Shown here: positions 42,339 through 64,000 of the stretch, piece after piece | Position numbering within the stretch: position 1 is the first letter of the stretch | Layout: each line of letters begins with the position of its first letter | DNA from: Candidatus Heimdallarchaeum aukensis | GTDB taxonomy: Archaea; Asgardarchaeota; Heimdallarchaeia; Heimdallarchaeales; Heimdallarchaeaceae | NCBI GenBank assembly: GCA_021513695.1 | Contig: CP084166.1 | Span: forward strand, 896,001-960,000 | DNA length: 64,000 nucleotides | Direction: 5' to 3' | The notes under the pieces: model-generated | The model's input: only the letters and a program-made list of their open reading frames with translations | What the model was told of the DNA's origin: nothing | Database searches by the model: none | Made by a program: the position numbers and the translations under genes

Positions 42339-42341
42339 CTC

Positions 42342-45300
42342 ATTTTCACACTACTTAGTTCAGCTTAAACCTCGTACTTGCTTGCAGAAGCACCTAGCAC
42401 GTAGTAATTTTCACACTACTTAGTTCAGCTTAAACCTTTCGATAATGATGGTGTTAGTGGTGAAGTGCAAAATTTTCACACTACTTAGTTCAGCTTAAAC
42501 AATCTATCAAGTGTCTCATTTTTTACGTTTCCTAGATTTTCACACTACTTAGTTCAGCTTAAACAATAACGTTTGAACATTGTTCTCGAATTCTTCATAA
42601 ATTTTCACACTACTTAGTTCAGCTTAAACAGTTGATGAAGGTGTGACAAAGTGTGACACTTCGATATTTTCACACTACTTAGTTCAGCTTAAACATTCTA
42701 CTTTTTTCTCAATCAATTTACAAGTTAGAGCGTCATTTTCACACTACTTAGTTCAGCTTAAACAGAACTAGGATCAGTCTCGGTCCATTCAGAAACTCGA
42801 TTTTCACACTACTTAGTTCAGCTTAAACTCCTAAAATAATAACTGATCCTAAGAATCCTGATAAGATTTTCACACTACTTAGTTCAGCTTAAACCCAGAG
42901 TGAGAACGGGGTTATAGGTCAATAATAAAGAAATTTTCACACTACTTAGTTCAGCTTAAACTTTGTTTTGATTTTTCTTTCTTTCAGGATAGCATCAATT
43001 TTCACACTACTTAGTTCAGCTTAAACAAATGGCTAAAAGAACCACAAGAACTTCAAGAAAATAATTTTCACACTACTTAGTTCAGCTTAAACTTTACATT
43101 TATATAACTTCCCCAGAAGATTATATATAATTTTCACACTACTTAGTTCAGCTTAAACCAGCAATGTTGGCACATCTCCCCACTCTACTTTCTCATTTTC
43201 ACACTACTTAGTTCAGCTTAAACATTACTCTTTTTTCTTTACAAAACATTTATATATTATATTTTCACACTACTTAGTTCAGCTTAAACGTTATATTAAG
43301 TGTTAAATAGTTCTCTTTTCCTTCTTATTTTCACACTACTTAGTTCAGCTTAAACGTAAAAAAATGAGTAATTCAGAAGAACATTTTCACACTACTTAGT
43401 TCAGCTTAAACTGAAAACCTTATAGGCTGGCGTGAATACGCAAACCTAATTTTCACACTACTTAGTTCAGCTTAAACACGTTTCCAAGTAAATCTGTTAC
43501 TATTTCAAATTTATTTTCACACTACTTAGTTCAGCTTAAACTGATTTACGTTACCCTCATGTTTGTTATGTTTATTTATTTTCACACTACTTAGTTCAGC
43601 TTAAACGAATTTACTTTACACAATGATCGTGCTGATACTGTTTTATTTTCACACTACTTAGTTCAGCTTAAACACATTGCTTGATATTGGAATTTTATAT
43701 CTTAATATATTTTCACACTACTTAGTTCAGCTTAAACCTGACTTTTTTGGAGAATTTGGTTTCGCTGATAGTAATTTTCACACTACTTAGTTCAGCTTAA
43801 ACTAGAAAATTGTATTCTTCAAACTATACGTATAGATATTCCATTTTCACACTACTTAGTTCAGCTTAAACCTTAAATTATCTTCAAACCAATCAGAATA
43901 ATAAAGTTCATATTTTCACACTACTTAGTTCAGCTTAAACATAAATATCGCTATTTCTCCTTTCTTAACTGTTCTTAATTTTCACACTACTTAGTTCAGC
44001 TTAAACCATAATCTATCATAAAAAAGTCTCCTATATCATAAGTATTTTCACACTACTTAGTTCAGCTTAAACACTATTTTTCCACCTTCTCTTTCTTCCC
44101 ATTCTCTCTTATTTTCACACTACTTAGTTCAGCTTAAACTTTGTACTTCACTGTGCTTAATATCTCTACTTATACTATTTTCACACTACTTAGTTCAGCT
44201 TAAACTTTATCACCCCTCATATATTTATTATACTTCCTAAAATTTTCACACTACTTAGTTCAGCTTAAACCGTACACCCATTCCTTAGGTGTCCAGTCTA
44301 ATACTTATTTTCACACTACTTAGTTCAGCTTAAACTCACCTATATATATGATGTTCTAACACATAAAAATCATTTTCACACTACTTAGTTCAGCTTAAAC
44401 CTGACTTTTTTGGAGAATTTGGTTTCGCTGATAGTAATTTTCACACTACTTAGTTCAGCTTAAACTAGAAAATTGTATTCTTCAAACTATACGTATAGAT
44501 ATTCCATTTTCACACTACTTAGTTCAGCTTAAACCTTAAATTATCTTCAAACCAATCAGAATAATAAAGTTCATATTTTCACACTACTTAGTTCAGCTTA
44601 AACATAAATATCGCTATTTCTCCTTTCTTAACTGTTCTTAATTTTCACACTACTTAGTTCAGCTTAAACCATAATCTATCATAAAAAAGTCTCCTATATC
44701 ATAAGTATTTTCACACTACTTAGTTCAGCTTAAACACTATTTTTCCACCTTCTCTTTCTTCCCATTCTCTCTTATTTTCACACTACTTAGTTCAGCTTAA
44801 ACTTTGTACTTCACTGTGCTTAATATCTCTACTTATACTATTTTCACACTACTTAGTTCAGCTTAAACTTTATCACCCCTCATATATTTATTATACTTCC
44901 TAAAATTTTCACACTACTTAGTTCAGCTTAAACCGTACACCCATTCCTTAGGTGTCCAGTCTAATACTTATTTTCACACTACTTAGTTCAGCTTAAACTC
45001 ACCTATATATATGATGTTCTAACACATAAAAATCATTTTCACACTACTTAGTTCAGCTTAAACCTCATAACAAATGGATAAAGACTATTGAAATCAAGAA
45101 TTTTCACACTACTTAGTTCAGCTTAAACCAATTATTATCGCAACAGCCATCTCAAGATCACCTTATTTTCACACTACTTAGTTCAGCTTAAACGTTTTTG
45201 AATAACAGTCTGTGAAGAGAGAGAAGCAAATTTTCACACTACTTAGTTCAGCTTAAACGTCTTATTTCGTTAAAATCTTCAACAATAGCTTGTTGATTTT

Positions 45301-48300
45301 CACACTACTTAGTTCAGCTTAAACACTTTAGACGTGAAAAATTGGTTAATGGTTTTAGGTGATTTTCACACTACTTAGTTCAGCTTAAACGTAAAGAGAA
45401 AAGAAGAAAGAAAAAGAACGATAAAAGAATTTTCACACTACTTAGTTCAGCTTAAACGAGATATTGCAACATTTTGCTACAAAAATATCTAAAAAATTTT
45501 CACACTACTTAGTTCAGCTTAAACTTTGAAGTATCTGTGATGTCTTTTGTGACTACTCCTGATTTTCACACTACTTAGTTCAGCTTAAACCTTACAGAGG
45601 GAGAATATGCGGGACAATATATTATTACATTTTCACACTACTTAGTTCAGCTTAAACATAGAAGAAGAGCTCATTACAACTTTCCTTTTCCGTGATTTTC
45701 ACACTACTTAGTTCAGCTTAAACAAGCGTCAGTAGCACCTACAAGCGGGACATTCACAAGATTTTCACACTACTTAGTTCAGCTTAAACTCTATTTTATA
45801 TACTTTCTCTAATTCTAAACTTCTACTATTTTCACACTACTTAGTTCAGCTTAAACAGTAGAAATGAAGGGGGGGTTAGGAGCTAGAAAAAATTTTCACA
45901 CTACTTAGTTCAGCTTAAACCAATTCTGTTAATTTGTTTATTTCTTCCCATCTTTCATTTTCACACTACTTAGTTCAGCTTAAACGATAAATGGTACAAT
46001 CGTTTGAACCCTTTTAGAAGAAATTTTCACACTACTTAGTTCAGCTTAAACAAGGTTATCGCCTTTACATTTAGGGTTCTCACAAGTAATTTTCACACTA
46101 CTTAGTTCAGCTTAAACTATTTATGTAAAAGTCCTCTTCATCTATTATTAAACTATTTTCACACTACTTAGTTCAGCTTAAACACTATAACTTTAAGCAC
46201 TTGTTTTACTATATCGAAAAATTTTCACACTACTTAGTTCAGCTTAAACAGTCCGTTCTCGTTTCTTATTTCTTCGTCATCGGTTCTAATTTTCACACTA
46301 CTTAGTTCAGCTTAAACATGATTTTGTATAGTTTCCTCTCTTTATAAATGAAAATTTTCACACTACTTAGTTCAGCTTAAACTCAGCGTTTTGTAGTTCT
46401 ATTTTTCGTAAGTCGTCATATTTTCACACTACTTAGTTCAGCTTAAACCATTTCTCCACCTCTTTTTCATTTCTACTTGTTCTAATTTTCACACTACTTA
46501 GTTCAGCTTAAACTTGCTCTCTAAATATATTGCATACATTCCTTTTCTGATTTTCACACTACTTAGTTCAGCTTAAACTGAACAAACACTCACAATCTTA
46601 TCTAATCTTTCAAACGTATTTTCACACTACTTAGTTCAGCTTAAACAAACTGAAGTCATGTCAAAGTTAGAAGCCCAACTATATTTTCACACTACTTAGT
46701 TCAGCTTAAACGAGCTTTTACTGAAGCAGAACTAAAAAGAAATACCCCAAATTTTCACACTACTTAGTTCAGCTTAAACCATTGAATTCCTCTTTCTTCC
46801 TCTGCACAATAGTGAATTTTCACACTACTTAGTTCAGCTTAAACACGGTGCTCTGAAATGATGGAGTTTGAACAAAAATATTTTCACACTACTTAGTTCA
46901 GCTTAAACGTACAATTATGTTAAATATAGAAGAATAAAAAGGAATTTTCACACTACTTAGTTCAGCTTAAACGATAAAAATGGTAGAAGAGCATAAGAAG
47001 AATGAGCTTAATTTTCACACTACTTAGTTCAGCTTAAACTCTATCCTCCTTTTTTTTGGTTTGCAGTTTATACAAGAATTTTCACACTACTTAGTTCAGC
47101 TTAAACTTCATAGAACTTGATGTTAGGGTTAGGAAAAACCTCATTTTCACACTACTTAGTTCAGCTTAAACTGTAGCTTTGAAAGTTTATCATAGTTATG
47201 TGAGAATTATTTTCACACTACTTAGTTCAGCTTAAACAGATGAAATTTCCGAATTAGTTACTTTATTTCCGTCTGATTTTCACACTACTTAGTTCAGCTT
47301 AAACATTGGAGCTCTTCCCTTGACAATACAAATATTACAAATTTTCACACTACTTAGTTCAGCTTAAACGAACGATTACAGTATAGAACAGACGAATATT
47401 ATTATATTTTCACACTACTTAGTTCAGCTTAAACATCAGCAACTCTTTGCTGGTTCTCAAGAGCTTTTTGATTTTCACACTACTTAGTTCAGCTTAAACG
47501 TGAAAAGTCTCTTGTGTAGGTATATCGTGCTGCGTATTTTCACACTACTTAGTTCAGCTTAAACAGGTTCTCACTTTGGACAAAAGAAGCAAGTTTAGAC
47601 GAATTTTCACACTACTTAGTTCAGCTTAAACTTTCTCCTGAAAGAAGATCGTATGGTAACGAATACGTATTTTCACACTACTTAGTTCAGCTTAAACTCT
47701 ACCACAATGAAGATCATGAGAAGAAACCCACACATTTTCACACTACTTAGTTCAGCTTAAACATTTTTTTCACCCATAATCATTTCCACCCCTCTTTGAT
47801 TTTCACACTACTTAGTTCAGCTTAAACTCAAGGTCAAAATGGGGAAAAAGGTCGAACTATGGTATTTTCACACTACTTAGTTCAGCTTAAACAACGCTTG
47901 TTTTGGGGTTTCACACCCCAAAATCTTATTTTCACACTACTTAGTTCAGCTTAAACTCTGCTTTATCTTCTTCTTTTTCACAATCTCTATGAATTTTCAC
48001 ACTACTTAGTTCAGCTTAAACTTTGCACCTATTATATTTTAAGAGTAAAGAATATAATTTTCACACTACTTAGTTCAGCTTAAACCAGAGAAAGACGCGG
48101 GTTCAATTTCGTATAAGTAAGTAATTTTCACACTACTTAGTTCAGCTTAAACTATCTTCTTTATCTCTTTTTCTACTAACTCATTCTTATTTTCACACTA
48201 CTTAGTTCAGCTTAAACTAGATAAAGGAAGTTTAGATAAAGCGATACAAGAATTGCTAAATTTTCACACTACTTAGTTCAGCTTAAACAAGCGAGTTCAG

Positions 48301-48420
48301 TATCTTCTTTTTCCTCATAGACCTTAATTTTCACACTACTTAGTTCAGCTTAAACATTTATTCCTGCTATACGCAATAGACTTGAAAACGTATTTTCACA
48401 CTACTTAGTTCAGCTTAAAC
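42342..48420 (-). CRISPR. CRISPR array 1: about 92 copies of the 29-bp repeat ATTTTCACACTACTTAGTTCAGCTTAAAC (+ strand) with 35-40 bp spacers; leader at the 48420 end, so it is transcribed on the - strand
   Basis: Perfect periodic repeat of about 66 bp seen directly; the transcribed orientation is GTTTAAGCTGAACTAAGTAGTGTGAAAAT, identical to array 2. Confidence 0.95.
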
Positions 48421-48535
48421 GAAGTTTATTTTCTTTTCTAGCTATATTTTTCTCTCGTTTTGTCACTCACCTTCCTGGTCGACCTCCAATAAGGTATTAA
48501 CTTTATAAATATTGACCAGATACATAAACGTTTAC
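48421..48535 (-). promoter_or_regulatory. Leader of CRISPR array 1 (about 115 bp conserved with the array 2 leader; contains a TTTATAAA TATA-like box and a GGTCGACC palindrome)
   Basis: GAAGTTTATTTTCTTTTCTAGCTATATTTTTCT...TTTGTCACTCACCTTCCTGGTCGACCTCCAATAA...CTTTATAAAT is about 90 percent identical to the reverse complement of 60858-60971. Confidence 0.6.
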
Positions 48536-48569
48536 CTTATAAACAATGACTAGTACCATTAAATTTGCT

Positions 48570-50075: not shown

Positions 50076-51525
50076 ATCTTGAAGTTGGCAGATTTACTCT
50101 TTTAGTATACATAAAGCTGGTTATAAAAAAATAAGGTTCTTCTTCTTCAAAAATCGAAGAAAACAAATCTATGAAATTAATTACTAATTCATTGGGTATT
50201 CTTACTGTAACAATTAGTCCCTTTTCATCTGTTATTAAATTAGTAAACGGTTCAGAATAAACTTCTGGAAACAGAGATAATCTATCATGAATCTCTTTTT
50301 GATCCACTTTTTTCTTAAATATAATCATCACATCGTTAGTTCCAAAAATTGGTATTATATTTACTCTTTTTATGTATAGTTGTTCATTTGTGAAGTGTTT
50401 CAAATATTTTCTTATTGTGCTCTGTGAAATATTAGTTTCCTTCTCTATTCTACTTACAGTCAAATCTCTATTCTTAATTATATATTCAAGTATCTTAAGG
50501 CCAGGCTTAGTTAATTTTAATTCACTTTCTTTTGTGTCTTCGAATCTAGGTTTCAATTCATTCTTTGTTTTACTCTTATTATGAAGTGCAATTGCAATTT
50601 CGCTTATCGAATAATTCCAATTTTTGTTTTTATAATCATATTTTGAATAATCAAACGTTGTTATCTGTTCTTCTCTATGCAGAACTAAAATTTCATATTT
50701 TGTTATTTCTTTTTTCTTGATTGACAAGTCAAAAAATTCACTTATTCTCCTACATATCTCCTTCAACAAGGGCACTGGGAATGAGTAGTAGAGTAACAAT
50801 GCCTTGCATGATGTATTCAGTGTCATCGATTTTCTTAAGAACATTTTAGGGAAATTTTCTTTTTTATGTATTGAAGAGAGTTCATCAAATCCATAAACAA
50901 TCACAAGAAGCAAGACAAAGTTTGTCTTTTTCAAATTCAAACTTATTCCTTCATAGATTATTCCTTTATCAAAGAGTAATTTTTTTGTTCTTGTTATATT
51001 TCCTGCATCTTTATTCAAAATTTTACTTAATTCTTTGGTTGAAGTAATTTGATATTTGATCATTGCTTGTAGTAATGAAAACTCTGCTTTTGTTAGACTA
51101 GGCTTGATTCTACTCCTTAATGTAAAAAAGAATCTCAGGAAAAGAGACCAATTTTCTAATAGTATTTTATTTTTTTTATATTCTAAAATAGAAAGTAATT
51201 TATTAGCTGTTTCTTCATCTTGAAGAAACTGTTTATATGACGAGAATATTACATATTTCAAATCATTATATTCTTTCTCTGTACTATATTCAGACCAAAA
51301 ATTCAACCATTTTTCTAATTGTTGTCTAGTTATGCTTTTTTTTCCTTTATTTTTCTGAAAATAAAGTATTCTATATATTTTAAAACATATTAAATCCCAA
51401 GCAGGTGTTTTTGGAACTATATTTAGTTCTTCAACTTTTTTTTTAAAAAATTTAAAATGTGATCCTAAGATTTCTCTCCCTTTCTCTAAAATTACTTCTC
51501 TTTCTTTTATTTGAGAATATTTCAT
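50047..51525 (-). CDS. Uncharacterised 492-aa protein with at least two winged-HTH modules and an Lrp/AsnC-like C-terminal arrangement (putative DNA-binding regulator) inside the CRISPR-cas locus
   Basis: HTH-like segments AEFSLLQAMIKYQITSTKELSKILNKDAGNITRTKKLLFDKGII and LKILEYIIKNRDLTVSRIEKETNISQSTIRKYLKHF, the latter followed by a beta-rich region as in AsnC-type regulators. Confidence 0.5.
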   Translation of the reverse strand: MKYSQIKEREVILEKGREILGSHFKFFKKKVEELNIVPKTPAWDLICFKIYRILYFQKNKGKKSITRQQLEKWLNFWSEYSTEKEYNDLKYVIFSSYKQFLQDEETANKLLSILEYKKNKILLENWSLFLRFFFTLRSRIKPSLTKAEFSLLQAMIKYQITSTKELSKILNKDAGNITRTKKLLFDKGIIYEGISLNLKKTNFVLLLVIVYGFDELSSIHKKENFPKMFLRKSMTLNTSCKALLLYYSFPVPLLKEICRRISEFFDLSIKKKEITKYEILVLHREEQITTFDYSKYDYKNKNWNYSISEIAIALHNKSKTKNELKPRFEDTKESELKLTKPGLKILEYIIKNRDLTVSRIEKETNISQSTIRKYLKHFTNEQLYIKRVNIIPIFGTNDVMIIFKKKVDQKEIHDRLSLFPEVYSEPFTNLITDEKGLIVTVRIPNELVINFIDLFSSIFEEEEPYFFITSFMYTKRVNLPTSRYDTTLQKWY

Positions 51526-52022: not shown

Positions 52023-52745
52023 TTGTTGATGAGGATTCTTATTTCTTTTAAGCCTAAATTTGATGTTTCAGAGGATGCCATAGTAAAACATGATATTCAA
52101 GGATTTATTTATAATCTAATCAAGTACAAAGATACTAAAGTTCTTTTAGATCATGATAAACATCATTTCAAATTTTTTTGTTTTAGCGATATTTTTCCTC
52201 AAGGTGATTTTAAAAAAGGAGAGACAAAAAATCTGTTAATTAGTTCTCCTACAAAAGAGCTAATAAATTTAATTGATGATAATCTTCCTCTTGAGAAATC
52301 CTATAGATTAGCTGGATTAACCATCGAAGTTATATCCAAAAAAACTTTTAACTTTCCCACAAAAAACAACTTTATTTCTGGAAGTCCTATAGTTTTATAC
52401 AAAGATAATACAAAGAATGAATATTTTAGCTTTAAGAAACACAAAAGTCTTAATTTCTTTCTCAATAGATTACAAGAAAATGCTGTGAAAAAGTATCAAA
52501 TTTACTATAACGATCCTGAATTTCAATTGTCTGGAAAGATTTTTGATACAATTGAATTTAGAAAGGAGGTTGCAGTTCACAACAGGAAACAAGGAAATGA
52601 ATTTATTCACATTGGCACTCTTTGGAAAAAATTAGAAAAAGAATACATAAAGAAAGAAGAAAGAAGGTTTTATCATTTTATCATGGAAAGTGGTCTTGGC
52701 GAAAAAAATAGTATGGGTTTTGGTTTTTTAAATCCTATTCAATAA
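52023..52745 (+). CDS. cas6: Cas6 (crRNA endoribonuclease), type I-B
   Basis: 240 aa; C-terminal glycine-rich loop GLGEKNSMGFGFL; first gene of the cas operon. Confidence 0.85.
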   Translation: MLMRILISFKPKFDVSEDAIVKHDIQGFIYNLIKYKDTKVLLDHDKHHFKFFCFSDIFPQGDFKKGETKNLLISSPTKELINLIDDNLPLEKSYRLAGLTIEVISKKTFNFPTKNNFISGSPIVLYKDNTKNEYFSFKKHKSLNFFLNRLQENAVKKYQIYYNDPEFQLSGKIFDTIEFRKEVAVHNRKQGNEFIHIGTLWKKLEKEYIKKEERRFYHFIMESGLGEKNSMGFGFLNPIQ

Positions 52746-52850
52746 ATTGTATTTTTTTGTTTAAATTTTACAATTAATTTTTGAAAAAACAACCTTTAAA
52801 ATATTTTTTTCTTTCTGTTTTACCAATAAAACTTAATTATTGGTGTTCCA

Positions 52851-54863
52851 TTGATACAAGCAGTTAAACAATTAGGAAAAAAAATACGAGAGATTTATCC
52901 TGAAAAATATGCAGATTTTGTCGATGTCTTTATTGCAGATGTAAAAACAGATTTATTTTTGATAGAATTAGAGAAAAAAGAAAACGATTTTCAATATAAT
53001 AAAATTGTTTGGATGGAACCAAAACCTGAGATAATTCCTAAATTACTTTATAAAGACTTTGGGAGAAATATCAAAATTAGACCTGCGCCTGTAGCTAAAG
53101 TAGGTTATTTCCAGACCAAATCAAAAGATGGTAAAATTTCAGAAAAAGAGCTCGAGAATCACAAGAAGAAAATAAAAAGCGAACTAGACGCTTCCATAAT
53201 TAAATGGTTTTCTCAAGAAATTGATAGAAGAAAAGAAGGTAGTGAAAAAAGAATTTTCTTGGAAAATATAAAAAAAGGAATACTCAATTCATTAGATAAT
53301 ATAATTACAGATATTAAAGAACAGATGGATTTTTCAGGTCAAAATAAGAAAAAAAATGAAAAGTGTATAATAACACTACAATTTTTGGAAGGTGGTAAAG
53401 AATATTACCTTCGTGACTTTGATATTTTTTCTAAAGCTTTTTTAGATAAAAACTTGGAACGTTACGCAAATAAATGGGGAATAACTTCTAAAGGAGAAGA
53501 TGCTGTTTGTTCATTATGTCATGAGAAAAAAGAAGAAGTCTTTGGTTGTGCCTCAGACATTTTTAGCTGGTACACTCTTGATAAAAGAGGATTTGCACCA
53601 TTCTTTGATCAGACTTTAGGATGGAAACTATTTCCTGTCTGTAAAGAATGTATTATTGATCTAGAGATAGGCAAAAAATTTGTTTTAAACAATCTACGTC
53701 TTAAGTTTAATGATTTTACTAACTTTTTCTTAATTCCAAAGCTTCTAAATCCTAAAATTATCGATAAGGGTATTTTGAGAAGATTTGAGCTTTTCAAGAG
53801 TATTTCAGTTGAAAATAATGAACTATTGGAAAAATATAGGAAAAAAGAAGAGATACTTAAGAGAGCTACAAAAAGCACAATTGAAATGATCGGAGAACAA
53901 GAAAAAGATAACAATTTTACGCAGAATATGATTTTCCTGAATTTAATTTTCTTTGATGATGATGGAAAATCTATAAAGATTCTACGTAGTATTGAAGATG
54001 TTCTTCCTTCCAGGTTTGTTCAGATAACTGATGAGCTATATAAAATAAATAAGGATGAAACTTTGGACAGCTATAAAATTTATTTGCAATTAGTTTTAAA
54101 CATCTTATATCTGGAAAAAGAAAGTAAACGCGGTTCTACAATTGATAAAAAGTATTTATCTACAATCGATTCTCTTCTTAAAGATGTACCTTTAGATTAT
54201 GATGTTCTTATAAAGGATATCGCTTCAAGTTGTCAAGAGATAGTAAAGGAAAGTTATCTTTCTGATAACAATCTAAAAAAAATAGCTAAAAAAATTACAA
54301 ATATTGACAAAGGTAATAATGACGTAGAATTTGGCAACTCTTATGAGTTAATAATTAATGCTTATTTAAAATATTTAGTTTTATTAAAAAGATTAAATCT
54401 AATCCAAAAATGGAGGGTATCAAAAATGATTGATAAAACAGGACTTGAAGAAGAAATATCAGATAATAAGAGTCGACTAAGCATCTTAAATTCAATATTT
54501 AATGCTTATTCTGACTTTTTTGATCAACCCATTATTCGTGCTGTCTTTGTATTAGGCATTTTGACTAAGCTATTGATGAATATTCAGTATCGCAATCTCA
54601 ATGCTACGCCTTTTTTCAACAGGTTAAATGGGTTAAAATTGAATAAAAGAATAATAATCAAACTTGTTTCCGAAGTAAAAGGAAAACTAAGTGAATACTC
54701 TATAGCTTATGTTGATTTAGAAGAAGAGATGGCTAAATACTTCTTAGAAGCTGGTCACAATTGGCTGGTTTCTGATGACGAACTTAGTTTCTTCTTCGCT
54801 TTGGGAATGAATAACGCGAGTAAATTTAAATCAGAAACAAAAGAAGGTGAAGAAAATGAGTGA
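52851..54863 (+). CDS. cas8b: Cas8b (Csh1/Cst1 large subunit), type I-B
   Basis: 670-aa protein between cas6 and cas7, with Cys-containing region CSLCHEKKEEVFGC...CKEC; its position and size define the I-B large subunit. Confidence 0.75.
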   Translation: MIQAVKQLGKKIREIYPEKYADFVDVFIADVKTDLFLIELEKKENDFQYNKIVWMEPKPEIIPKLLYKDFGRNIKIRPAPVAKVGYFQTKSKDGKISEKELENHKKKIKSELDASIIKWFSQEIDRRKEGSEKRIFLENIKKGILNSLDNIITDIKEQMDFSGQNKKKNEKCIITLQFLEGGKEYYLRDFDIFSKAFLDKNLERYANKWGITSKGEDAVCSLCHEKKEEVFGCASDIFSWYTLDKRGFAPFFDQTLGWKLFPVCKECIIDLEIGKKFVLNNLRLKFNDFTNFFLIPKLLNPKIIDKGILRRFELFKSISVENNELLEKYRKKEEILKRATKSTIEMIGEQEKDNNFTQNMIFLNLIFFDDDGKSIKILRSIEDVLPSRFVQITDELYKINKDETLDSYKIYLQLVLNILYLEKESKRGSTIDKKYLSTIDSLLKDVPLDYDVLIKDIASSCQEIVKESYLSDNNLKKIAKKITNIDKGNNDVEFGNSYELIINAYLKYLVLLKRLNLIQKWRVSKMIDKTGLEEEISDNKSRLSILNSIFNAYSDFFDQPIIRAVFVLGILTKLLMNIQYRNLNATPFFNRLNGLKLNKRIIIKLVSEVKGKLSEYSIAYVDLEEEMAKYFLEAGHNWLVSDDELSFFFALGMNNASKFKSETKEGEENE

Positions 54864-55785
54864 AATAATAAAAAATAGGTCTGAAATAGTTTTTTTGTAT
54901 GATGTTAGAGACGGTAATCCAAATGGTGACCCTGCTGATGGGAACAAGCCTAGGATTGATGAAACCAGTGGTATCAACATAGTAACTGATGTTCGACTAA
55001 AGAGAACAATAAGAGACTATATAAACAAGGTTAAAGGCCATGAAATTTTTGTTAAAAAGATAGAAGACTTAGAAGGGATAATCCAAACTTCTAAACAACG
55101 AGCACAAGATTTTCAGAATGATCCAGATAAGATTCTTTCTGAATGCGTGGATGTCAGGATGTTTGGGGGAACTATACCAATAAAAATTTCTGATAAGAAA
55201 GATGGTAGCATTACTTTTACTGGTCCCGTTCAATTCTCTATGGGGAGATCTCTTCACAGAGTCGAGTTAAAACATGTTAAAGGAACAGGAGCTTTTGCTT
55301 CTTCAGAAGGAAAGAAACAACAGACTTTTCGAGAAGAGTGGATACTACCTTATTCACTAATAAGCTTTTATGGTGTAATAAATGAGAATGGTGCAGAAGA
55401 TACACAGTTAACCGAAGAGGATGTTAAGCTTCTTGTAGAAAGTATCTGGAATGGGACTAATGATTTGTTAACAAGAAGTAAGATGGTTCATAGATCTAGA
55501 GTTCTTTTACAAATTATTTACCAAGAGAAAAACTTCCATGTCGGAGAGCTTGACAAAAAGATTAAGATGAAGGCTAAAGTTGAAGATGAAAAAATTAGAG
55601 GTACGGATGACTACACTCTTGAATTTGATAATTTTGTAGAAGCGATCAAAAATAACAAAGAAAAAGTAAAAATTATTCGTTACAAAGTAGATGACAGTAT
55701 TAATCTTGAATTTAATGGTGACAAAAAGACTATAGAAGAGATTCTAAAACTTACAGAATGTGAATTGGAAGAGCTGAAATTTTAA
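54847..55785 (+). CDS. cas7: Cas7 (Csh2/DevR-type backbone subunit), type I-B
   Basis: N-terminal FLYDVRDGNPNGDPADGN signature of Cas7 family proteins. Confidence 0.9.
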   Translation: MKKMSEIIKNRSEIVFLYDVRDGNPNGDPADGNKPRIDETSGINIVTDVRLKRTIRDYINKVKGHEIFVKKIEDLEGIIQTSKQRAQDFQNDPDKILSECVDVRMFGGTIPIKISDKKDGSITFTGPVQFSMGRSLHRVELKHVKGTGAFASSEGKKQQTFREEWILPYSLISFYGVINENGAEDTQLTEEDVKLLVESIWNGTNDLLTRSKMVHRSRVLLQIIYQEKNFHVGELDKKIKMKAKVEDEKIRGTDDYTLEFDNFVEAIKNNKEKVKIIRYKVDDSINLEFNGDKKTIEEILKLTECELEELKF

Positions 55786-55791
55786 TAATAG

Positions 55792-56553
55792 GTGAGACTA
55801 ATGCTAAAACAGGAAGCTGAAGTAAGAGAAGTTTTAGTTTTCGATATTTGGGGTGATTTTGCTCATTTTAAGAAAAACTATGCTACAACTTCAGCTCTTA
55901 CATACAATTTTCCTCCTCGAAATACTATTGCAGGAATAATTGGAGCAATTTTAGGTTTAAAGAGGGCAGATTTTCCTGAAAAATTGTCTCCTGAAAAGAG
56001 TTACATTGGTGTTTCAATACTCTCTCCAATAATGAAAAAAACTATTACAATGAATCTTATTCACACTAAACCTTCTGAATCACTTATATTCAAAAATAAT
56101 TTTGGTTATTTCAAAAAGCACACACAGATTCCTTTTCAATTTTTATCTAATATCTCATTTAGGGTGTATTTTTCAACTGACGATGAGGAAATGTTTTCAC
56201 AACTATATACATATCTTAAAAACCATAAGTCTCATTATACAGTTTCGTTAGGTTTGAGCAATCTACTTTGTAACTTTAAGTTAATAGGAAAAAAAACAAT
56301 AAGAAAAAAAGAAGTAGCTAACAAAGAAGTAGAGGTTTTAACAGTAATTCCGATGAACAAAGTCAAAGAAGTAAATGTGTTTAAAAATCCTAAAATGAAT
56401 ATCGAGAATTTACCCAGATTTATCGATAGTTCAAGAACAGTTCATGAATACCAGGAAGTTCTATCAAGCATGGATCCAGAAAAACCTCTTTTTGTAGTCC
56501 CTAGAGATACCTTATGGGAGATTGAAAATGACAAATTCATCAGTTTCCTCTGA
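55792..56553 (+). CDS. cas5: Cas5 (type I-B)
   Basis: 253 aa; N-terminal VLVFDIWGDFAHFKK...PPRNTIAGIIGAILG typical of Cas5. Confidence 0.85.
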   Translation: MRLMLKQEAEVREVLVFDIWGDFAHFKKNYATTSALTYNFPPRNTIAGIIGAILGLKRADFPEKLSPEKSYIGVSILSPIMKKTITMNLIHTKPSESLIFKNNFGYFKKHTQIPFQFLSNISFRVYFSTDDEEMFSQLYTYLKNHKSHYTVSLGLSNLLCNFKLIGKKTIRKKEVANKEVEVLTVIPMNKVKEVNVFKNPKMNIENLPRFIDSSRTVHEYQEVLSSMDPEKPLFVVPRDTLWEIENDKFISFL

Positions 56554-58990
56554 AAATCAGATAAACATTTTTTCTCACCCTAATAAAAATATTTTAGAAC
56601 ATTTAAGTGAGACAGAAAGAGAAATTCTAAATATCCTTGAAAAACTACAGCCCAATTTTTCAATCAAAAAAAACATTATTATCGAAATCGCTAGAATTTT
56701 AGCTTTAACACATGATATTGGAAAATGCACAATCTTTTTTCAAGAATATCTTCATTCAAACGAAGAAAATAACTTCAAAAAATTGGGAGAATATCAAAGT
56801 TCAAAACTTCACCACCATGGACTAATCTCTGCAGTTTTTACCTATTATACACTAAAGAAACTTTTAAATTCAAATAATGAGCAGTTCTATGACCTGAATA
56901 GTGGATATAAAGACCTATTACCTCATATAGGCTTTTTAACAACAAAAAAACATCATGGTAATTTAGGAAATTTTTATGATGAGATTATTATAAACAGAAC
57001 AAGTGAAGAAAAGATTAGACAGCAACTAGAAAATTTCCATCCCCAATTCGAAAATGTTGTCGAATTCATAAGAAATAAAATTAATATAACAATTTCATTT
57101 AATGAATTTTCAGAATCCTTTGGAGATTTAATTGATGAATTAGCTTTCAGTGATGAACTATTATTGAACTATTATGAAAATAGTAGAGATTGTGAACTTT
57201 ATCTATTTACTTTATTTTTACATTCAATCTTAACAGATGCAGATAAAACTTCTGCTATTGGTGTCTCTAAGCCTATTCTTCCATTTATTTCTTCTAACAA
57301 AATTATCAAAAACAGGAAAAAAATAATCCAGAAAAAAGGAAAAAAGACATATTTAGATAACTTAAGAGAGAATATTTACAAAGAAGTAATTGCAAAGATA
57401 GAAAAAACACCTTTAGATAACAAAATATTTACATTAACAGCTCCTACAGGTTCAGGAAAAACTCTCACAGTTTTTGAAGCAGCATTTAGATTGAAAGATA
57501 AAATTTTAAGGAGAACTAATATAGAAATGAAAATTATTTATTGCCTTCCATTTCTCAGCATCATTGATCAAAATGCTCACATTATTAACCAACTGCTAGA
57601 TCCTGACTCAGTTAAGTTTCTTCCTTCAACTCAACTACTAATTCATCATTACTTGGCAGAAGTTCAATACAGCTCTTATGAAGAAGATTATACCTTTGAT
57701 GAAAGTAGATTCCTAATTGAGGATTGGCATTCTTCAGTTATTATTACAACCTTTATTCAGCTTTTTCATAGTATTTTTACCAATAGAAATAGCAAGATAA
57801 GGAAACATCACAATATACAAAATTCTATCATAATACTTGATGAAGTTCAAAACATTCCTCATAAGTATTGGTTATTGATCAGGGAAGTTTTTCAAAGATT
57901 ATCAGAGATCGAGAATGTTTATATCATTTTTACAACAGCCACACAGCCTAAAATTTTTAGTTCAGAAGAGAAAGTTGTTGAATTACTTGAAAATAAGGAA
58001 AAATACTTTGAACAGTTAAGTAGAATTACTTTAGAACCAAAAATTGATAACAATATCACACTCAACGAGTTTATTTTAGAAATTAATGAGAAACTGCAAA
58101 AGAACAGTGACAAGGATATTCTAATTGTTGCGAATACAATCCGAGAAGCTCAAGAGATTTTTGACAGTATTAATTTTAAAAAAGATCATGATAAGTTATT
58201 TTTCCTTTCAAGTCAAATAATCCCTAGAAAGAGGAAAGAAAGAATTGAAGAAATAAAGAGAAAATTAGAAAAAGAAAAAGATAAAAGAGAGAGTAATGAA
58301 AAACGAATTATTTTAGTAACTACCCAATTAATTGAAGCAGGAGTAGATATCGATTTTGATATTGTAATAAGAGATTTAGGACCAATAGATTCTATAAATC
58401 AAGTAGCAGGAAGATGTAACAGAAACGGAGAAGAAGAAAAGGGAAAAACAATTGTTTATTCAGTCATTGACCAAAAAACAAAAAGATTATTTGCTTCATA
58501 CATTTATGACGGATTTATTTTAAGTAAAACGAAGGATGTTCTAAAAAACAAAAGAGTGATAGAAGAACAAGAATTCCTCAAAATCATTGACGATTATTAT
58601 TTAAGCATCGAAAAGACAGGGGACACAATAACCTCCACTAATATACTAGACTCTATCTTTAATTTAGAGTTTGATGAAATAGGTAAATTTAGCCTGATAG
58701 AAGAAAGAGCTGATCAAGTTCCTGTTTTTATTGAGATAGATAAAAAGGCAAAGGAAATTTGGGCAGAATATTTGGAAATATGGAATATTAAAGATTGGAA
58801 GAAAAGAAATGAGAAATTTATAAAAATCAAAAATGATCTCTATAGTAACTTAATTAACGTAGACAAGAAAAAAATCAAAACAATTGAGCAAATAAAGGGT
58901 TATTATTATATCGATTTTCAAAATGCTAGGAACTACTACGACAATGAAAAAGGTTTCATTGGGAAAGAAAAAGATGTTATTTTATTATAA
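56522..58990 (+). CDS. cas3: Cas3 (HD nuclease + DEAD/DEAH-box helicase fusion)
   Basis: HD-domain motifs LTHDIGK and HHHG; helicase motif I LTAPTGSGKT and motif II IILDEVQ; 822 aa. Confidence 0.9.
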   Translation: MKMTNSSVSSENQINIFSHPNKNILEHLSETEREILNILEKLQPNFSIKKNIIIEIARILALTHDIGKCTIFFQEYLHSNEENNFKKLGEYQSSKLHHHGLISAVFTYYTLKKLLNSNNEQFYDLNSGYKDLLPHIGFLTTKKHHGNLGNFYDEIIINRTSEEKIRQQLENFHPQFENVVEFIRNKINITISFNEFSESFGDLIDELAFSDELLLNYYENSRDCELYLFTLFLHSILTDADKTSAIGVSKPILPFISSNKIIKNRKKIIQKKGKKTYLDNLRENIYKEVIAKIEKTPLDNKIFTLTAPTGSGKTLTVFEAAFRLKDKILRRTNIEMKIIYCLPFLSIIDQNAHIINQLLDPDSVKFLPSTQLLIHHYLAEVQYSSYEEDYTFDESRFLIEDWHSSVIITTFIQLFHSIFTNRNSKIRKHHNIQNSIIILDEVQNIPHKYWLLIREVFQRLSEIENVYIIFTTATQPKIFSSEEKVVELLENKEKYFEQLSRITLEPKIDNNITLNEFILEINEKLQKNSDKDILIVANTIREAQEIFDSINFKKDHDKLFFLSSQIIPRKRKERIEEIKRKLEKEKDKRESNEKRIILVTTQLIEAGVDIDFDIVIRDLGPIDSINQVAGRCNRNGEEEKGKTIVYSVIDQKTKRLFASYIYDGFILSKTKDVLKNKRVIEEQEFLKIIDDYYLSIEKTGDTITSTNILDSIFNLEFDEIGKFSLIEERADQVPVFIEIDKKAKEIWAEYLEIWNIKDWKKRNEKFIKIKNDLYSNLINVDKKKIKTIEQIKGYYYIDFQNARNYYDNEKGFIGKEKDVILL

Positions 58991-59002
58991 CGAAATGATG
59001 GA

Positions 59003-59031
59003 GTTCAAGCTAAACTAAGTAGTATGAAAAT
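59003..59031 (+). repeat. Orphan degenerate CRISPR repeat (26/29 identity to the array repeat) between cas3 and cas4
   Basis: GTTCAAGCTAAACTAAGTAGTATGAAAAT compared with GTTTAAGCTGAACTAAGTAGTGTGAAAAT; same orientation as array 2. Confidence 0.6.
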
Positions 59032-59073
59032 TAGAGGTAGAAGTAATGGTATTAAATTCTTGGTGAAATTGTA

Positions 59074-59604
59074 ATGGTGGAGTTAAATCATATTAGCATT
59101 AAGAATACTGATTTTGCAGTAACTGGAGTAATGGTTCAATATTTATTTTCATGTAAAAGAGAATTGTGGTTTTTTACCAAAAAAATTGATTTCAACAAAG
59201 AGGATCAGAACATTCAAATTGGCAAAATAATACATGAAACAAGCTATAAACGAAATAAAAAAGAGTTTGACTTAGGTTTTGTAAAATTTGACTTAATTGA
59301 AACAAAAAACAGGATAATAATTTCTGAAATAAAAAAATCTTCAAAACTTTTGGAACCTGCAAAAATGCAACTTTTGTATTATGTTTACATTTTAAGTAAA
59401 ATAACTGAAAAAGAAGTAGAAGGAGAAATTAGAATTCCAAAAGAGAGAAAAAAAGTAAAGATTCAATTGCAAAACGAAGAAGAAAAATTAATTCAAAAAG
59501 CTTTGAGAGAGATTAAAGAAATTTCCTTACTGGAAAGACCTCCCAAAGCAGAAAAAAAATTTTATTGTAAGAATTGCGCTTATTACATTTTTTGCTGGGT
59601 TTGA
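59074..59604 (+). CDS. cas4: Cas4 (RecB-like nuclease with C-terminal Fe-S cysteine cluster)
   Basis: 176 aa; N-terminal Cys (FSCKREL) plus C-terminal CKNCAYYIFC; position between cas3 and cas1. Confidence 0.85.
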   Translation: MVELNHISIKNTDFAVTGVMVQYLFSCKRELWFFTKKIDFNKEDQNIQIGKIIHETSYKRNKKEFDLGFVKFDLIETKNRIIISEIKKSSKLLEPAKMQLLYYVYILSKITEKEVEGEIRIPKERKKVKIQLQNEEEKLIQKALREIKEISLLERPPKAEKKFYCKNCAYYIFCWV

Positions 59605-60591
59605 GTGAAAAAAATGAAAGATTCTATTTACATTACAAAGGAAGGAGTAATTTACAGAAAAGATAATACTATTGTTTTTCAAAATCAAGAACAAAAGCAT
59701 ACTTTACCTATCGAAGCAGTGAAAGATATATATTGTATTGGCAAAGTAACTATAAGATCTGGAGCAGCTTATCAACTAATGGAAAAAAGGATTCCTGTAC
59801 ATTTTTTCGGAAAATATGGACACTATAGAGGAACATTACAACCAAAACAAGATCTAATCTCTGGAGAAGTAATAGTAAAACAAGTTCAACATTATACTGA
59901 TTACATAAAAAGAATAAAAATTGCAAAAGAGATGTTTAAAGGAATAAAACACAACATTCTCTGGGTTCTAAAATATTACAAATCAAAAAGAGATATAGAA
60001 GATGTAGTTGAAAAAATTGAACATGTTAATATTCAAGAAGAAATATTAAAAATAAATACATTAAGAAGTTTAGAAGGTCAAATATGGGAACTTTTCTATC
60101 AAGCTGCTGATACAATTTGTCCTTCATGGGGTTTTAGAAAAAGGACTAGAAGGCCTCCTTTAGATGAAGGAAATGCACTAATATCTTATGGAAACTCAGT
60201 TCTATATGGAAAAACAATTTCTGAAATATTCAAAACTTATCTTCATCCTGCAATTTCGTTTATACACGAACCAAGTGAAAGAAGGTACTCTTTAGCCTTA
60301 GATCTAGCTGATATTTTCAAACCAGTAATAGTTTTTAGAACAGTCTTCAGGCTTATAAATCAGAAAATAATTTCAAAGAAAGATTTTGAAAAAGAAGTAG
60401 GAGTCCAAATTTCAGAAAAAGGAAAAAAAGTATTTATCACAGAATTAGAAAAAACATTCACAACTACAGTAAGACATCCAAATCTGAAAAGAAATACCTC
60501 ATACCAGTTTTTGATAAGACTTGAAGGACTAAAAATAATGAAACATGTTCTAGGAGATAAAAAATATGAAAGCTTTAAAGCATGGTGGTAG
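59605..60591 (+). CDS. cas1: Cas1 integrase
   Basis: 328 aa; start abuts the cas4 stop; length and position between cas4 and cas2 consistent with Cas1. Confidence 0.85.
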   Translation: MKKMKDSIYITKEGVIYRKDNTIVFQNQEQKHTLPIEAVKDIYCIGKVTIRSGAAYQLMEKRIPVHFFGKYGHYRGTLQPKQDLISGEVIVKQVQHYTDYIKRIKIAKEMFKGIKHNILWVLKYYKSKRDIEDVVEKIEHVNIQEEILKINTLRSLEGQIWELFYQAADTICPSWGFRKRTRRPPLDEGNALISYGNSVLYGKTISEIFKTYLHPAISFIHEPSERRYSLALDLADIFKPVIVFRTVFRLINQKIISKKDFEKEVGVQISEKGKKVFITELEKTFTTTVRHPNLKRNTSYQFLIRLEGLKIMKHVLGDKKYESFKAWW

Positions 60592-60857
60592 AGATATACG
60601 TGATAATCGTTTATGACGTGGGAGAAGAAAGAGTAAATAGAATACATAAATTCTTGAAAGCATATTTAACATGGACACAAAATTCAGTATTTGAAGGAAA
60701 AATAACAAAAGCAACATTAGCTCAAATAAAAACAGGAATAAAAAGCATAATAAAAAAAGAAGTCGATTCAATAAAAATATTCAAAATAAAAGGAGAACAA
60801 TGGATGAATATTGAAATAATGGGAGTAGAAAAAAATAAGTTTCAGAATATAATTTAG
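60582..60857 (+). CDS. cas2: Cas2
   Basis: 91 aa; N-terminal MVVEIYVIIVYDVGEERVNRIHKFL typical of Cas2; overlaps the cas1 stop. Confidence 0.8.
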   Translation: MVVEIYVIIVYDVGEERVNRIHKFLKAYLTWTQNSVFEGKITKATLAQIKTGIKSIIKKEVDSIKIFKIKGEQWMNIEIMGVEKNKFQNII

Positions 60858-60971
60858 GTAAATCGTAAGAATCAGGTCGACATTTATAAAGATGATACAT
60901 TATTGGAGGTCGACCAGGAAGGTGAGTGACAAAAGGAAAGAAAAATATAACTAGAAAAGAAAATAAACTTC
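60858..60971 (+). promoter_or_regulatory. Leader of CRISPR array 2 with ATTTATAAAG TATA-like box and two GGTCGAC elements
   Basis: Sequence directly after cas2 is the reverse complement of the array 1 leader (about 90 percent identity over about 115 bp). Confidence 0.6.
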
Positions 60972-63900
60972 GTTTAAGCTGAACTAAGTAGTGTGAAAAT
61001 TTCTTTTGTTCTTTGGAGGAGGACAACCTTCAACGAGTTTAAGCTGAACTAAGTAGTGTGAAAATCAGTCTGGGTATATTTTATGCCCCTCAATATTTTG
61101 AGTTTAAGCTGAACTAAGTAGTGTGAAAATTGCTGGCTGGACTGGGCATAATTTCCAGAAATCTCTGTTTAAGCTGAACTAAGTAGTGTGAAAATAGTAA
61201 AATAGCTTTTATTTATTCCGTAGTAATATATGGTTTAAGCTGAACTAAGTAGTGTGAAAATCGCTATTGTAGTCGAGTTAGAAGATGGAGAGATTGAGTT
61301 TAAGCTGAACTAAGTAGTGTGAAAATAAATATATTGTGATGAATTGGATAAAAGAACTAAAAGTTTAAGCTGAACTAAGTAGTGTGAAAATAAACCAGAA
61401 GGAATGACTTTCATTCCTGCTACAGGTTTAAGCTGAACTAAGTAGTGTGAAAATTAATCAGAATAAAATGCTCATAATCATTGGTATAATAGTTTAAGCT
61501 GAACTAAGTAGTGTGAAAATGCAAAGCAATGAAAGGAGTGTTTTGTCTGGTGAGGTCGTTTAAGCTGAACTAAGTAGTGTGAAAATCAATCAGATTTGAG
61601 GGACAAAATAGTCCCGTTGGGACGTTTAAGCTGAACTAAGTAGTGTGAAAATACTGAAGAACAAGAAAAGAATATAAAAAGAACCAAGGTTTAAGCTGAA
61701 CTAAGTAGTGTGAAAATTAATATATCTATCGACTTGAACAAATTAGTTGAAGAGGGTTTAAGCTGAACTAAGTAGTGTGAAAATGGTAAATCCCCCAACA
61801 ATCCTGAAAGTGTTAAATTTGTTTAAGCTGAACTAAGTAGTGTGAAAATATTGTTCTTTTTTCAAATCATCTATTTTTTTTGCTCGTTTAAGCTGAACTA
61901 AGTAGTGTGAAAATTACAATTGACAGTAGTCACACACAAACCATTTAGGTGTTTAAGCTGAACTAAGTAGTGTGAAAATAAAATTCTTCGTGTGTCATAT
62001 AAAAGGCATCATCAGTTTAAGCTGAACTAAGTAGTGTGAAAATAGATCAGAGAGACTTGGGTAGAGTTAGTGAGATCTATGTTTAAGCTGAACTAAGTAG
62101 TGTGAAAATTACATATTTTTGAATAATTGAGACATGCATATGACGTTTAAGCTGAACTAAGTAGTGTGAAAATACAGCTCTCAACTGATAAGAGCGTTCT
62201 TTTTCATTGTTTAAGCTGAACTAAGTAGTGTGAAAATTTGTCAAAGTGTTTGTATAAGTGTCAATATAATCTGTTTAAGCTGAACTAAGTAGTGTGAAAA
62301 TATGTCTTTAGAGACTTGTTGAAGAGCAGGATTGTCAGGTTTAAGCTGAACTAAGTAGTGTGAAAATCAAGCATTTCTGCGATAACGACACCAGAACCAT
62401 TAAGTTTAAGCTGAACTAAGTAGTGTGAAAATTAAATGTGGTCGTGTATCGTTATATGGTGCTCTGAAATGTTTAAGCTGAACTAAGTAGTGTGAAAATA
62501 TATCTCCAGAGTGCCAAATTTCAACATTTGACACGTTTAAGCTGAACTAAGTAGTGTGAAAATCCAATTAATTAAGCCGCTGTTTCAAAAGGTGGTTCAG
62601 TTTAAGCTGAACTAAGTAGTGTGAAAATTTCGATGGATCCATAAAGGTAAATTAGGATCCCAAAAGTTTAAGCTGAACTAAGTAGTGTGAAAATAAAAAG
62701 CCAAGAGATGGATTGATGAACAAAAAAACCGTTTAAGCTGAACTAAGTAGTGTGAAAATCAGTCTGGATAGAGTTTGTGCCCATTAATATTCTGAATTGT
62801 TTAAGCTGAACTAAGTAGTGTGAAAATAGAGTAGGATTGTCAGATTGATCCATAAGGTATAGAAGTTTAAGCTGAACTAAGTAGTGTGAAAATGGTGACG
62901 CCACAAGCGAGGCATTCCCAAGCTCAATAGTTTAAGCTGAACTAAGTAGTGTGAAAATGGATTAAAAAATATGTCTCCTCTCGCTCGTTACGGGTTTAAG
63001 CTGAACTAAGTAGTGTGAAAATAATATCTTTAGATACCTGTTGAAGAGCGGAGTTGGTTTAAGCTGAACTAAGTAGTGTGAAAATCCAAAATTCTCGACT
63101 GCCTCTAAAGCAAATGAGAAAGTTTAAGCTGAACTAAGTAGTGTGAAAATTTTTTTTTCTGTCTGTTATTTCTTCTACTTCTTCTGTTTAAGCTGAACTA
63201 AGTAGTGTGAAAATTTATGATATGCGAACGTTTGCATGTTTGCGAATACAAGTTTAAGCTGAACTAAGTAGTGTGAAAATAGAAAACGTTTGGCTCGAAT
63301 GGATTGGTTTCTATGTCGTTTAAGCTGAACTAAGTAGTGTGAAAATTTGCTAAACCCGCCGCATAATCTTTTTTCTTTTATTTTGTTTAAGCTGAACTAA
63401 GTAGTGTGAAAATTAACCTGCAGAAATATCTTGTAAAATCTTGAATTCAACCTTGTTTAAGCTGAACTAAGTAGTGTGAAAATTAGTTTTGATTTGTAAA
63501 AGACGGATATCCACTTGTTGTGCTGTTTAAGCTGAACTAAGTAGTGTGAAAATATCAACACGTGGGTTTCTATCCAAATCTAATCCTCTGTTGTTTAAGC
63601 TGAACTAAGTAGTGTGAAAATAGCGATATAAAGAAGTTATCCTTTTCAGTATAATAAGGTTTAAGCTGAACTAAGTAGTGTGAAAATAAATTTCTAAAAA
63701 TATTGAAAGGTCAAAATCAAGATTGTTTAAGCTGAACTAAGTAGTGTGAAAATCTAACATGTGTAAGATTCATTGGGCCAATCCAAATTGTTTAAGCTGA
63801 ACTAAGTAGTGTGAAAATCTAAACACAATTTGCATGATGCCATGCTTGTTTTTTGTTTAAGCTGAACTAAGTAGTGTGAAAATGTTGGTTGTGTATAGTG

Positions 63901-64000
63901 TAAATAGATTTTTCTGATTGGGTTTAAGCTGAACTAAGTAGTGTGAAAATTTCTACTTCAAAGAATGAGCACCAATAGTTAAACCAGTTTAAGCTGAACT
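60972..64000 (+). CRISPR. CRISPR array 2: at least 46 copies of GTTTAAGCTGAACTAAGTAGTGTGAAAAT with 35-40 bp spacers, leader-proximal end at 60972, continues beyond the window end
   Basis: Perfect periodic repeat seen directly; transcribed on the + strand away from cas2. Confidence 0.95.

Follow-up and report, generated by a model that had tools for sequence, protein, structure and literature searches.

What could a single copy of a CRISPR repeat be doing inside a cas operon, outside any array? The question is raised by the type I-B locus of Candidatus Heimdallarchaeum aukensis, carried on the 64,000-nucleotide (nt) stretch of contig CP084166.1 analysed here (positions 896,001 to 960,000, hereafter the window, whose first letter is position 1 of all coordinates), where a solitary, sense-oriented, degenerate repeat, referred to hereafter as psiR (59003..59031, + strand), separates cas3 from cas4. 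psiR (GTTCAAGCTAAACTAAGTAGTATGAAAAT) is identical at 26/29 positions to the 29-nt repeat common to both arrays of the window (GTTTAAGCTGAACTAAGTAGTGTGAAAAT), its mismatches, all of them transitions, falling at repeat positions 4 (T>C), 10 (G>A) and 22 (G>A). A search of the window allowing up to 3 mismatches to the repeat returned 140 sites, namely 139 perfect array repeats and psiR, against 0.00 expected by chance from shuffled sequence, and when the sequence beyond the arrays was scanned with gaps allowed, psiR scored 23 and the runner-up 13. psiR is the sole repeat-like site outside the arrays in the 64 kb, and no second repeat-like sequence (up to 11 mismatches) was found within ~300 nt of it on either strand.

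The gap that holds psiR (58991-59073) is 83 nt long. psiR begins 12 nt past the cas3 stop (58991..59002, + strand, CGAAATGATGGA, a stretch without leader motifs), ends 42 nt ahead of the cas4 start, and shares its orientation with the cas genes and with array 2. The interval that follows (59032..59073, + strand), which is the cas4 5′ untranslated region (UTR) and occupies the position of a "pseudo-spacer", carries a GGTGA Shine-Dalgarno-like motif at 59062-59066. The initial annotation had described a single 29-bp sequence with three mismatches in an 83-bp gap, flanked by an effector module (cas6 to cas3) upstream and an adaptation module (cas4-cas1-cas2) downstream; the description of the repeat is correct in every detail, and NCBIfam assignments agree on both modules. 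Being single, outside the arrays, near-identical to its cognate repeat and inside a cas locus, psiR has the attributes of a standalone repeat-like sequence, and it is a true copy of the repeat that the locus uses, having become fixed as a single unit in the Heimdallarchaeum I-B lineage.

The reading that we favour, while holding it tentatively and at somewhat less than an even chance, is that psiR is a captured repeat at the module boundary, co-transcribed with the cas genes and cut by Cas6, so that the effector and adaptation mRNAs are separated, a processing role that the initial annotation had also put forward. Transcription, cleavage and regulatory consequence are steps that we infer as follows. 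psiR most likely derives from an array end or from repeat-mediated recombination that placed it at the effector/adaptation boundary, and it is probably transcribed within the cas operon mRNA: the gap holds no T-run longer than 3 of the kind that resembles an archaeal terminator, and this, together with the sense orientation, makes read-through from cas3 into cas4, with psiR in the mRNA, the simplest expectation. The Cas6 encoded by the locus (52023..52745, + strand; TIGR01877, 108 bits) is intact, is the endoribonuclease expected to recognise both the array repeat and psiR, and is 98% identical between haplotypes that share the repeat. It would bind psiR RNA and cleave it between 59023 and 59024 (repeat positions 21/22), leaving 8 nt on the 3′ side, an expectation drawn from type I-B biochemistry because the 3′ two-thirds of the repeat are almost unchanged.

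The remaining 8 nt (59024..59031, + strand, AUGAAAAU; canonical GUGAAAAU) are the predicted CRISPR RNA (crRNA)-type 5′ handle, by analogy with type I systems and in particular with Haloferax I-B, in which Cas6 leaves an 8-nt 5′ handle (PMC6546412). The position 22 change (G22A), the only one in the 3′ part of the window allele, lies at the first nucleotide of this predicted handle, a position that is tolerant in Haloferax: there the first handle nucleotide varies between loci, its removal (giving a 7-nt handle) leaves a functional molecule, and Cascade loading needs neither a 3′ handle nor a downstream repeat (PMC6546412). Such a cut would part an mRNA ending in cas3 from a cas4-cas1-cas2 mRNA; the latter would then begin with a crRNA-type 5′ handle, placed immediately before the cas4 ribosome-binding site and 19-42 nt ahead of the start codon. 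The likely net effect would be a post-transcriptional uncoupling, probably a down-tuning, of adaptation relative to effector genes, exerted through mRNA stability or translation.

Is psiR kept in related loci? Cas4 and Cas3 protein searches, combined with genomic context, recovered all public contigs close to the locus. The initial annotation would have taken a lack of the repeat in related loci as one ground for refutation, and the outcome is divided. Among close relatives the cas3-cas4 junction is present in five Heimdallarchaeum-type contigs (L001, L002, L044, L045 and L046), and a sense psiR stands at the same place in 5/5. The window allele (GTTCAAGCTAAACTAAGTAGTATGAAAAT, changes at positions 4, 10 and 22) is shared by L001, L002 and L044; L046, whose Cas3 is 84% identical, has GATTAAGCTGAACTAAGTAGTGTGAAAAT, changed at position 2 and preceded by 2 extra nt; and L045, a Heimdallarchaeaceae assembly with an 85% identical Cas3, has GTTTTAGCTGAACTAAGTAGTGTGAAAAT, changed at position 5. 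In L045 only 19 nt lie between psiR and the cas4 ATG, the 23 nt equivalent to window 59032-59054 being missing, and the gap measures 62 nt. The canonical repeat is identical to that of the window in every relative with an array (L001, L002 and L045), while L044 and L046 end before any array.

A psiR-like copy is, on the other hand, absent from every more distant I-B locus surveyed. L003 has the identical 29-nt repeat and a 61% identical Cas4, yet its cas3-cas4 gap is only 8 nt and contains no repeat copy; cas3 and cas4 overlap in L004 and L005; and in 28 loci from GTDB, retrieved with a profile built from 7 Cas4 sequences (a 33-sequence alignment being too diverse), the two genes abut, overlap or lie too close together to hold a repeat, with no isolated repeat at the junction in any locus where the repeat is known. 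This distribution makes psiR a derived insertion at the module boundary. The exact psiR sequence had 0 matches in GTDB representative genomes, from which it follows that psiR is not the canonical repeat of another sampled system. A search of JGI metagenome contigs with the 19-mer AACTAAGTAGTATGAAAAT gave 9 matches, all judged to be chance and all at gene starts. The L003 contig comes from the same metagenome as L002, and its operon (L003:421-8520) is a second, different type I-B operon (Cas3 43%, Cas4 61% and Cas1 65% identical) with the same repeat and leader motifs.

Retention within the clade has to be weighed between Cas6 processing and a rival that we consider almost as likely, namely that psiR is an inert scar of a collapsed array or of module-joining recombination, with no selected role, which decays slowly or is repaired now and then by gene conversion from the arrays, any Cas6 cleavage being incidental and of no consequence. 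Several features of the three alleles sit poorly with such a scar. They differ pairwise at 4, 4 and 2 of 29 positions, far below the synonymous divergence of either flanking gene: synonymous p-distances between the window and L045 are 0.42 for cas3, 0.29 for cas4 and 0.37 for cas1, and between the window and L046 0.51 for cas3, so that at flanking-gene synonymous rates (0.29-0.51) 8-15 differences in psiR would be expected (binomial P 3e-5 to 0.05). The gap outside psiR has taken two indels, of 2 nt and 23 nt, and psiR none (as judged by relative alignment). The changes are also polarised to the 5′ third, with variable positions 2, 4, 5 and 10 in repeat positions 1-10 versus only 22 in positions 11-29 (Fisher P = 0.036), such that the 3′ 19 nt, holding the expected cleavage site and handle, are nearly invariant over the three alleles; the lone 3′ change, in the window allele, is the one at the Haloferax-tolerant handle position (PMC6546412). 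Taken from sequence comparison, this is moderate evidence that psiR is being kept, and both selection and other means of retention fit it.

Other observations weigh against the processing reading, and some of them speak directly for a scar. The density of substitutions within psiR is not significantly below that of the 31 other alignable positions of the gap (4/29 versus 7/31, P = 0.5; 2/29 versus 7/31, P = 0.15). The changes in the three alleles are independent and unshared, a star-like pattern of private substitutions that would look like slow neutral decay from one canonical ancestor, and gene conversion from the more than 139 array repeats could keep psiR near-canonical without selection. 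The statistics are thin, there being three alleles in public data. The absence of psiR from distant I-B loci, L003 with its identical repeat included, means that it is not needed for I-B function, and its restriction to one clade, where distant relatives have abutting or overlapping cas3 and cas4, is as expected of a scar. Finally, a TATA-like string (TTTTATTATAA) lies at 58979-58989, inside the end of cas3; if used as an internal archaeal promoter it might start transcription within psiR.

That string also belongs to a different and improbable explanation, in which psiR acts as a cas4 expression signal, either through an upstream open reading frame (uORF) starting at the ATG at 59024 or through a transcription start within psiR driven by the TATA-like box in the cas3 end. 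G22A creates the ATG at 59024 and with it a 16-codon uORF (MKIRGRSNGIKFLVKL), whose in-frame TAA (59072-59074) overlaps the cas4 ATG (TAATG); the same frame opens with GTG in L046, and in L045 a GTG is in frame with cas4 itself. The TATA-like string is conserved, and psiR varies in its 5′ third. No suitably spaced Shine-Dalgarno-like motif precedes 59024, though, the uORF is not preserved as such in L045, and the conservation of the TATA-like string says little, since the string doubles as coding sequence of cas3 and the genome is very rich in A and T. A sigma-70 promoter and intrinsic-terminator scan of 58600-59300 gave 4 hits versus 4.2 expected under a bacterial model that is not applicable to an archaeal host.

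RNA folding assigns the canonical repeat a weak hairpin (-1.5 kcal/mol, z = 0.08) and the window psiR allele a stronger one (-4.0 kcal/mol, z = -2.35), since with T4C and G10A Watson-Crick pairs take the place of G-U pairs. A structural role for this hairpin was set aside: the outer stem is disrupted in both the L045 and the L046 allele, and we estimate the chance of two such pair-strengthening changes among three random transitions at p ~0.1.

How did a repeat come to rest at this boundary? Comparison of strains places recombination close by. Through cas3 the window differs from L001, L002 and L044 at 5-14 positions per 100 nt, with an abrupt stop at 58861, beyond which there are no differences for ~590 nt and then ~1.3%; relative to L046 the sequences differ for the last time at 59040 and 59049 and are identical from there on. 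The inter-strain breakpoints, at ~58861 and 59049-59163, lie on either side of psiR. Protein identity between the window and L046 is 98% for cas6, 76% for cas8b, 83% for cas7, 88% for cas5 and 84% for cas3, and the first 90 nt of cas4, all that is comparable there, are identical; the adaptation genes are 98-100% identical in L001 and L002 and ~93-97% identical in L045. The cas8b-cas3 block thus seems to have been swapped as a cassette, or to be fast-evolving, independently of cas6 and (in the near-identical haplotypes) of the start of the adaptation block, and its right-hand boundary falls within ~150 nt of psiR. Across 52851-58861 this divergence mosaic, measured against L046 and L044, amounts to 76-88% protein identity for cas8b to cas3 and a synonymous divergence (dS) of 0.7-1.2. 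L001 has a 40-nt deletion at the cas3 3′ end (L001:1100-1160, window 58822-58861), exactly at the breakpoint, giving a frameshift and an early cas3 end, and L044 likewise has an indel at the cas3 3′-end breakpoint. Wu et al. 2022 (PMC8813620), a study of circularised Asgard genomes that include this host, describe seven markedly variable CRISPR-Cas loci and, between the two species, a "complete local operon swap"; the passages of that study on CRISPR do not mention the lone repeat.

A parallel for the arrangement is found in a Mahella sp. metagenome-assembled genome, where a solitary repeat with 3 mismatches (L016:5943-5972) precedes cas4 by 22 nt. A same-strand array of 75 repeats ends 370 nt before this copy, which overlaps the stop of an open reading frame (ORF) of 96 amino acids (aa) and is separated from cas4 by an AAGGAG ribosome-binding site. 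The copy is not kept in relatives L048-L053, in which a truncated terminal repeat comes after the array, ~95 nt ahead of cas4. Mahella-type loci therefore offer a natural route by which an array-end repeat can land just upstream of cas4, one for which conservation is not required. The flanking breakpoints, the divergence mosaic of cas8b-cas3 relative to its neighbours and the unconserved degenerate or truncated array-end repeats of the Mahella type all count in favour of the scar. The initial annotation had suggested that psiR marks an ancient junction at which two modules were joined; as an origin this is reasonable, given the derived insertion, the flanking breakpoints and the Mahella parallel, but the junction is not ancient across I-B systems, being confined to one Heimdallarchaeum clade.

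The same breakpoints bear on a role at the DNA level, the least probable of the alternatives that we weighed: psiR would offer a patch of homology with which array repeats could recombine (in module or cassette exchange, in inversion with array 1 or in deletion with array 2), or would be a seed for Cas1-Cas2 integration. Strain breakpoints do cluster within ~150 nt of psiR, whose orientation is direct relative to the repeats of array 2 and inverted relative to those of array 1. As mapped, at 58861 and 59049-59163, the breakpoints nonetheless fall near psiR and not inside it, no related contig has a psiR mini-array or a deletion or inversion ending in psiR, and the array leader motifs are absent at psiR.

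Could psiR instead specify a guide? In a CreR/CreA-type arrangement the pseudo-spacer, from 59032 onwards, would direct Cascade to bind without cutting and so repress the promoter of a cas or other gene. Degenerate ectopic repeats in cas loci are known to act in this way, archaeal I-B included, some CreA having only one repeat (PMC10120712; PMC9458426; bioRxiv 10.1101/2023.03.10.532045), and Cascade loading without a 3′ handle has been described for Haloferax I-B (PMC6546412). We still regard a guide as very unlikely here. In the 64-kb window, which was searched in place of the whole genome, the 36 nt after psiR have no protospacer adjacent motif (PAM)-proximal seed match of at least 10 nt, the best being two 9-nt runs, one inside cas8b and one inside an array spacer, which is close to chance expectation; none of the promoter regions of the cas locus gave a seed match, and the pseudo-spacers of L045 and L046 did not yield one either. 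L045 lacks the pseudo-spacer's first 23 nt, leaving the seed unconserved, and the "spacer" is the cas4 ribosome-binding site plus start codon. For the 212 array spacers of the window, L001-L003 and L045, no convincing protospacer was found in the sequences compared.

Three related candidates were rejected. There is no room for the toxin of a CreTA module, the 83-nt gap (62 nt in L045) being filled by psiR and the cas4 ribosome-binding region. Membership of an array or mini-array is contradicted by the want of a second repeat (the best other match within ~300 nt has at least 12/29 mismatches) and of leader motifs, and by the end of cas3 only 12 nt upstream. A mobile-element Racr does not fit a repeat lying inside a chromosomal cas operon, and a search of viral contigs with the 3′ 19-mer (R at position 22) gave 1 chance match.

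Cas6 processing of the mRNA also admits a more elaborate version, which we think unlikely, in which psiR is a feedback sensor. Once Cas6 had cut the mRNA at psiR, Cas5 and Cas7 would assemble on the handle and coat the next ~36 nt, so that free Cascade subunits would silence or destroy the cas4-cas1-cas2 message, whereas titration of the subunits by abundant crRNA, or their block by an anti-CRISPR, would raise adaptation expression. Those ~36 nt include the cas4 ribosome-binding site and, in L045, the start codon as well (19 nt on), but not the start codon of the window (43 nt after psiR). Were this so, adaptation genes of an Asgard archaeon would be subject to a counterpart, at the mRNA level, of CreR autoregulation.

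The locus that houses psiR is a type I-B locus with a complete cas set and adjacent arrays. NCBIfam profiles matched above cut-off for Cas6, Cas7/Csh2, Cas5b, Cas3 core plus HD, Cas4, Cas1b and Cas2, and Cas8b/Csh1 scored 122 bits (cut-off 104). The Cas3 of the window is 100% identical to a protein annotated as Candidatus Heimdallarchaeum aukensis, and a look-up of the exact Cas4 sequence returned no record. All of the cas genes are on the + strand. Downstream of cas6 come cas8b (52851-54863), cas7 (54847-55785), cas5 (55792-56553) and cas3 (56522..58990, with Cas3′ helicase and Cas3″ HD domains), which closes the effector block; then, past psiR, cas4 (59074..59604, TIGR00372), the first of the adaptation block, cas1 (59605-60591) and cas2 (60582-60857), the profile matches again being from NCBIfam. 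In contrast to the cas3-cas4 gap, the 105-nt spacer between cas6 and cas8b (52746-52850) holds, after the cas6 stop, two T7 runs (52752-52758 and 52804-52810) of a kind at which archaeal transcription terminates, so cas6 may have a transcript separate from that of cas8b-cas3. A possible, very degenerate repeat noticed by eye in this spacer (~52759-52789) did not rise above background in the gapped scan and was discarded.

Array 1 (42342..48420, - strand) has 93 perfect repeats and array 2 (60972..63950, + strand) 46, the latter reaching the window end. All 139 are perfect, the terminal repeat of array 1 included, so no degenerate last repeat exists there. The sequence beyond that terminal repeat (42341 downwards, minus strand) looks by eye like the 3′ end of a protein gene (...DTDGDGYSDY*), and array 1 appears to abut or truncate a gene at 42341. 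Leader 2 occupies the interval between cas2 and array 2 (60858-60971, + strand); leader 1 begins at 48421, on the upstream side of array 1 (- strand), and matches leader 2 almost exactly across at least the repeat-proximal ~100 nt (alignment 48417-48552). Both leaders share a module made up of GGTCGAC, a TATA box (TTTATAAA) and a second GGTCGAC, which is palindromic (window 60875-60915 and 48477-48484), and a further motif, GAAAATAAAC, adjoins the repeat. These leader motifs occur only at the two arrays, GGTCGAC having 5 matches in the 64 kb versus 0.6 expected and none outside the leaders, and the GGTCGAC/TATA/GGTCGAC module is also kept in the leaders of L045 and L003; it may bind a leader-specific factor.

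Elsewhere in the window, an Rfam scan returned no family at threshold, array repeats included, and no tRNA genes were found. The interval from the leader of array 1 to cas6 holds two large overlapping ORFs of 501 and 492 aa (48570-51525, minus strand); the 501-aa ORF has no Pfam match, and the two have sub-threshold NCBIfam matches only (WxPxxD membrane protein; Sta1 regulator). A 486-aa ORF at 25666-27126 (+ strand) has a Cas12f1-like TNB domain (PF07282, E = 2.7e-10) and is hence TnpB-like.

How, then, does psiR stand beside known stray repeats? Standalone repeat-like sequences arise sporadically in many cas loci, and those of type I-B are enriched around cas6, usually as mini-arrays whose spacer has a match in the promoter of cas6 or cas8 (Shmakov et al. 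2023; PMC10120712). psiR resembles them in lying outside an array, inside a type I cas locus and close to the locus's own repeat, and differs in being single, placed between cas3 and cas4, and without a detectable target. With the CreR/CreA of archaeal I-B CreTA it shares the character of a degenerate ectopic repeat in an I-B cas operon that could give a Cas6-processed, Cascade-loadable RNA with a 5′ handle; unlike them it has no seed target, conserved pseudo-spacer or toxin, is far less degenerate (1-3 mismatches), and is followed by the 5′ UTR of a protein gene in place of a small RNA. Racrs, the solitary repeat units of phages and plasmids (PMC10651486), are likewise single, partnerless repeats able in principle to bind Cas6 or Cascade subunits, but they are found on mobile elements and act against the host, whereas psiR is in the host's own operon. 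A degenerate terminal array repeat may have equally few mismatches, and in the Mahella-type case (22-95 nt upstream of cas4) the same layout, but no array adjoins psiR and the terminal repeat of array 1 is perfect. A phrase search of the literature found no paper that uses "between cas3 and cas4" or "upstream of cas4" of a repeat.

psiR belongs to the known class of standalone repeat-like elements and is a modest addition to it. A function is plausible on present sequence evidence, and mRNA processing in place of a guide RNA would, if confirmed, be a new mode for the class. If Cas6 cuts here, the operon would have built-in differential expression of its adaptation and effector genes with no extra promoter or protein regulator, in a setting where over-expressed adaptation genes raise the risk of self-targeting spacers (bioRxiv 10.1101/2023.03.10.532045), and functional stray repeats would be extended to the position directly upstream of cas4 and to Asgard archaea. 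If psiR is only a scar, it would still mark a recombination-prone boundary, across which Heimdallarchaeum strains appear to swap cas8b-cas3 while keeping cas6, the repeat and, where comparable, the adaptation genes.

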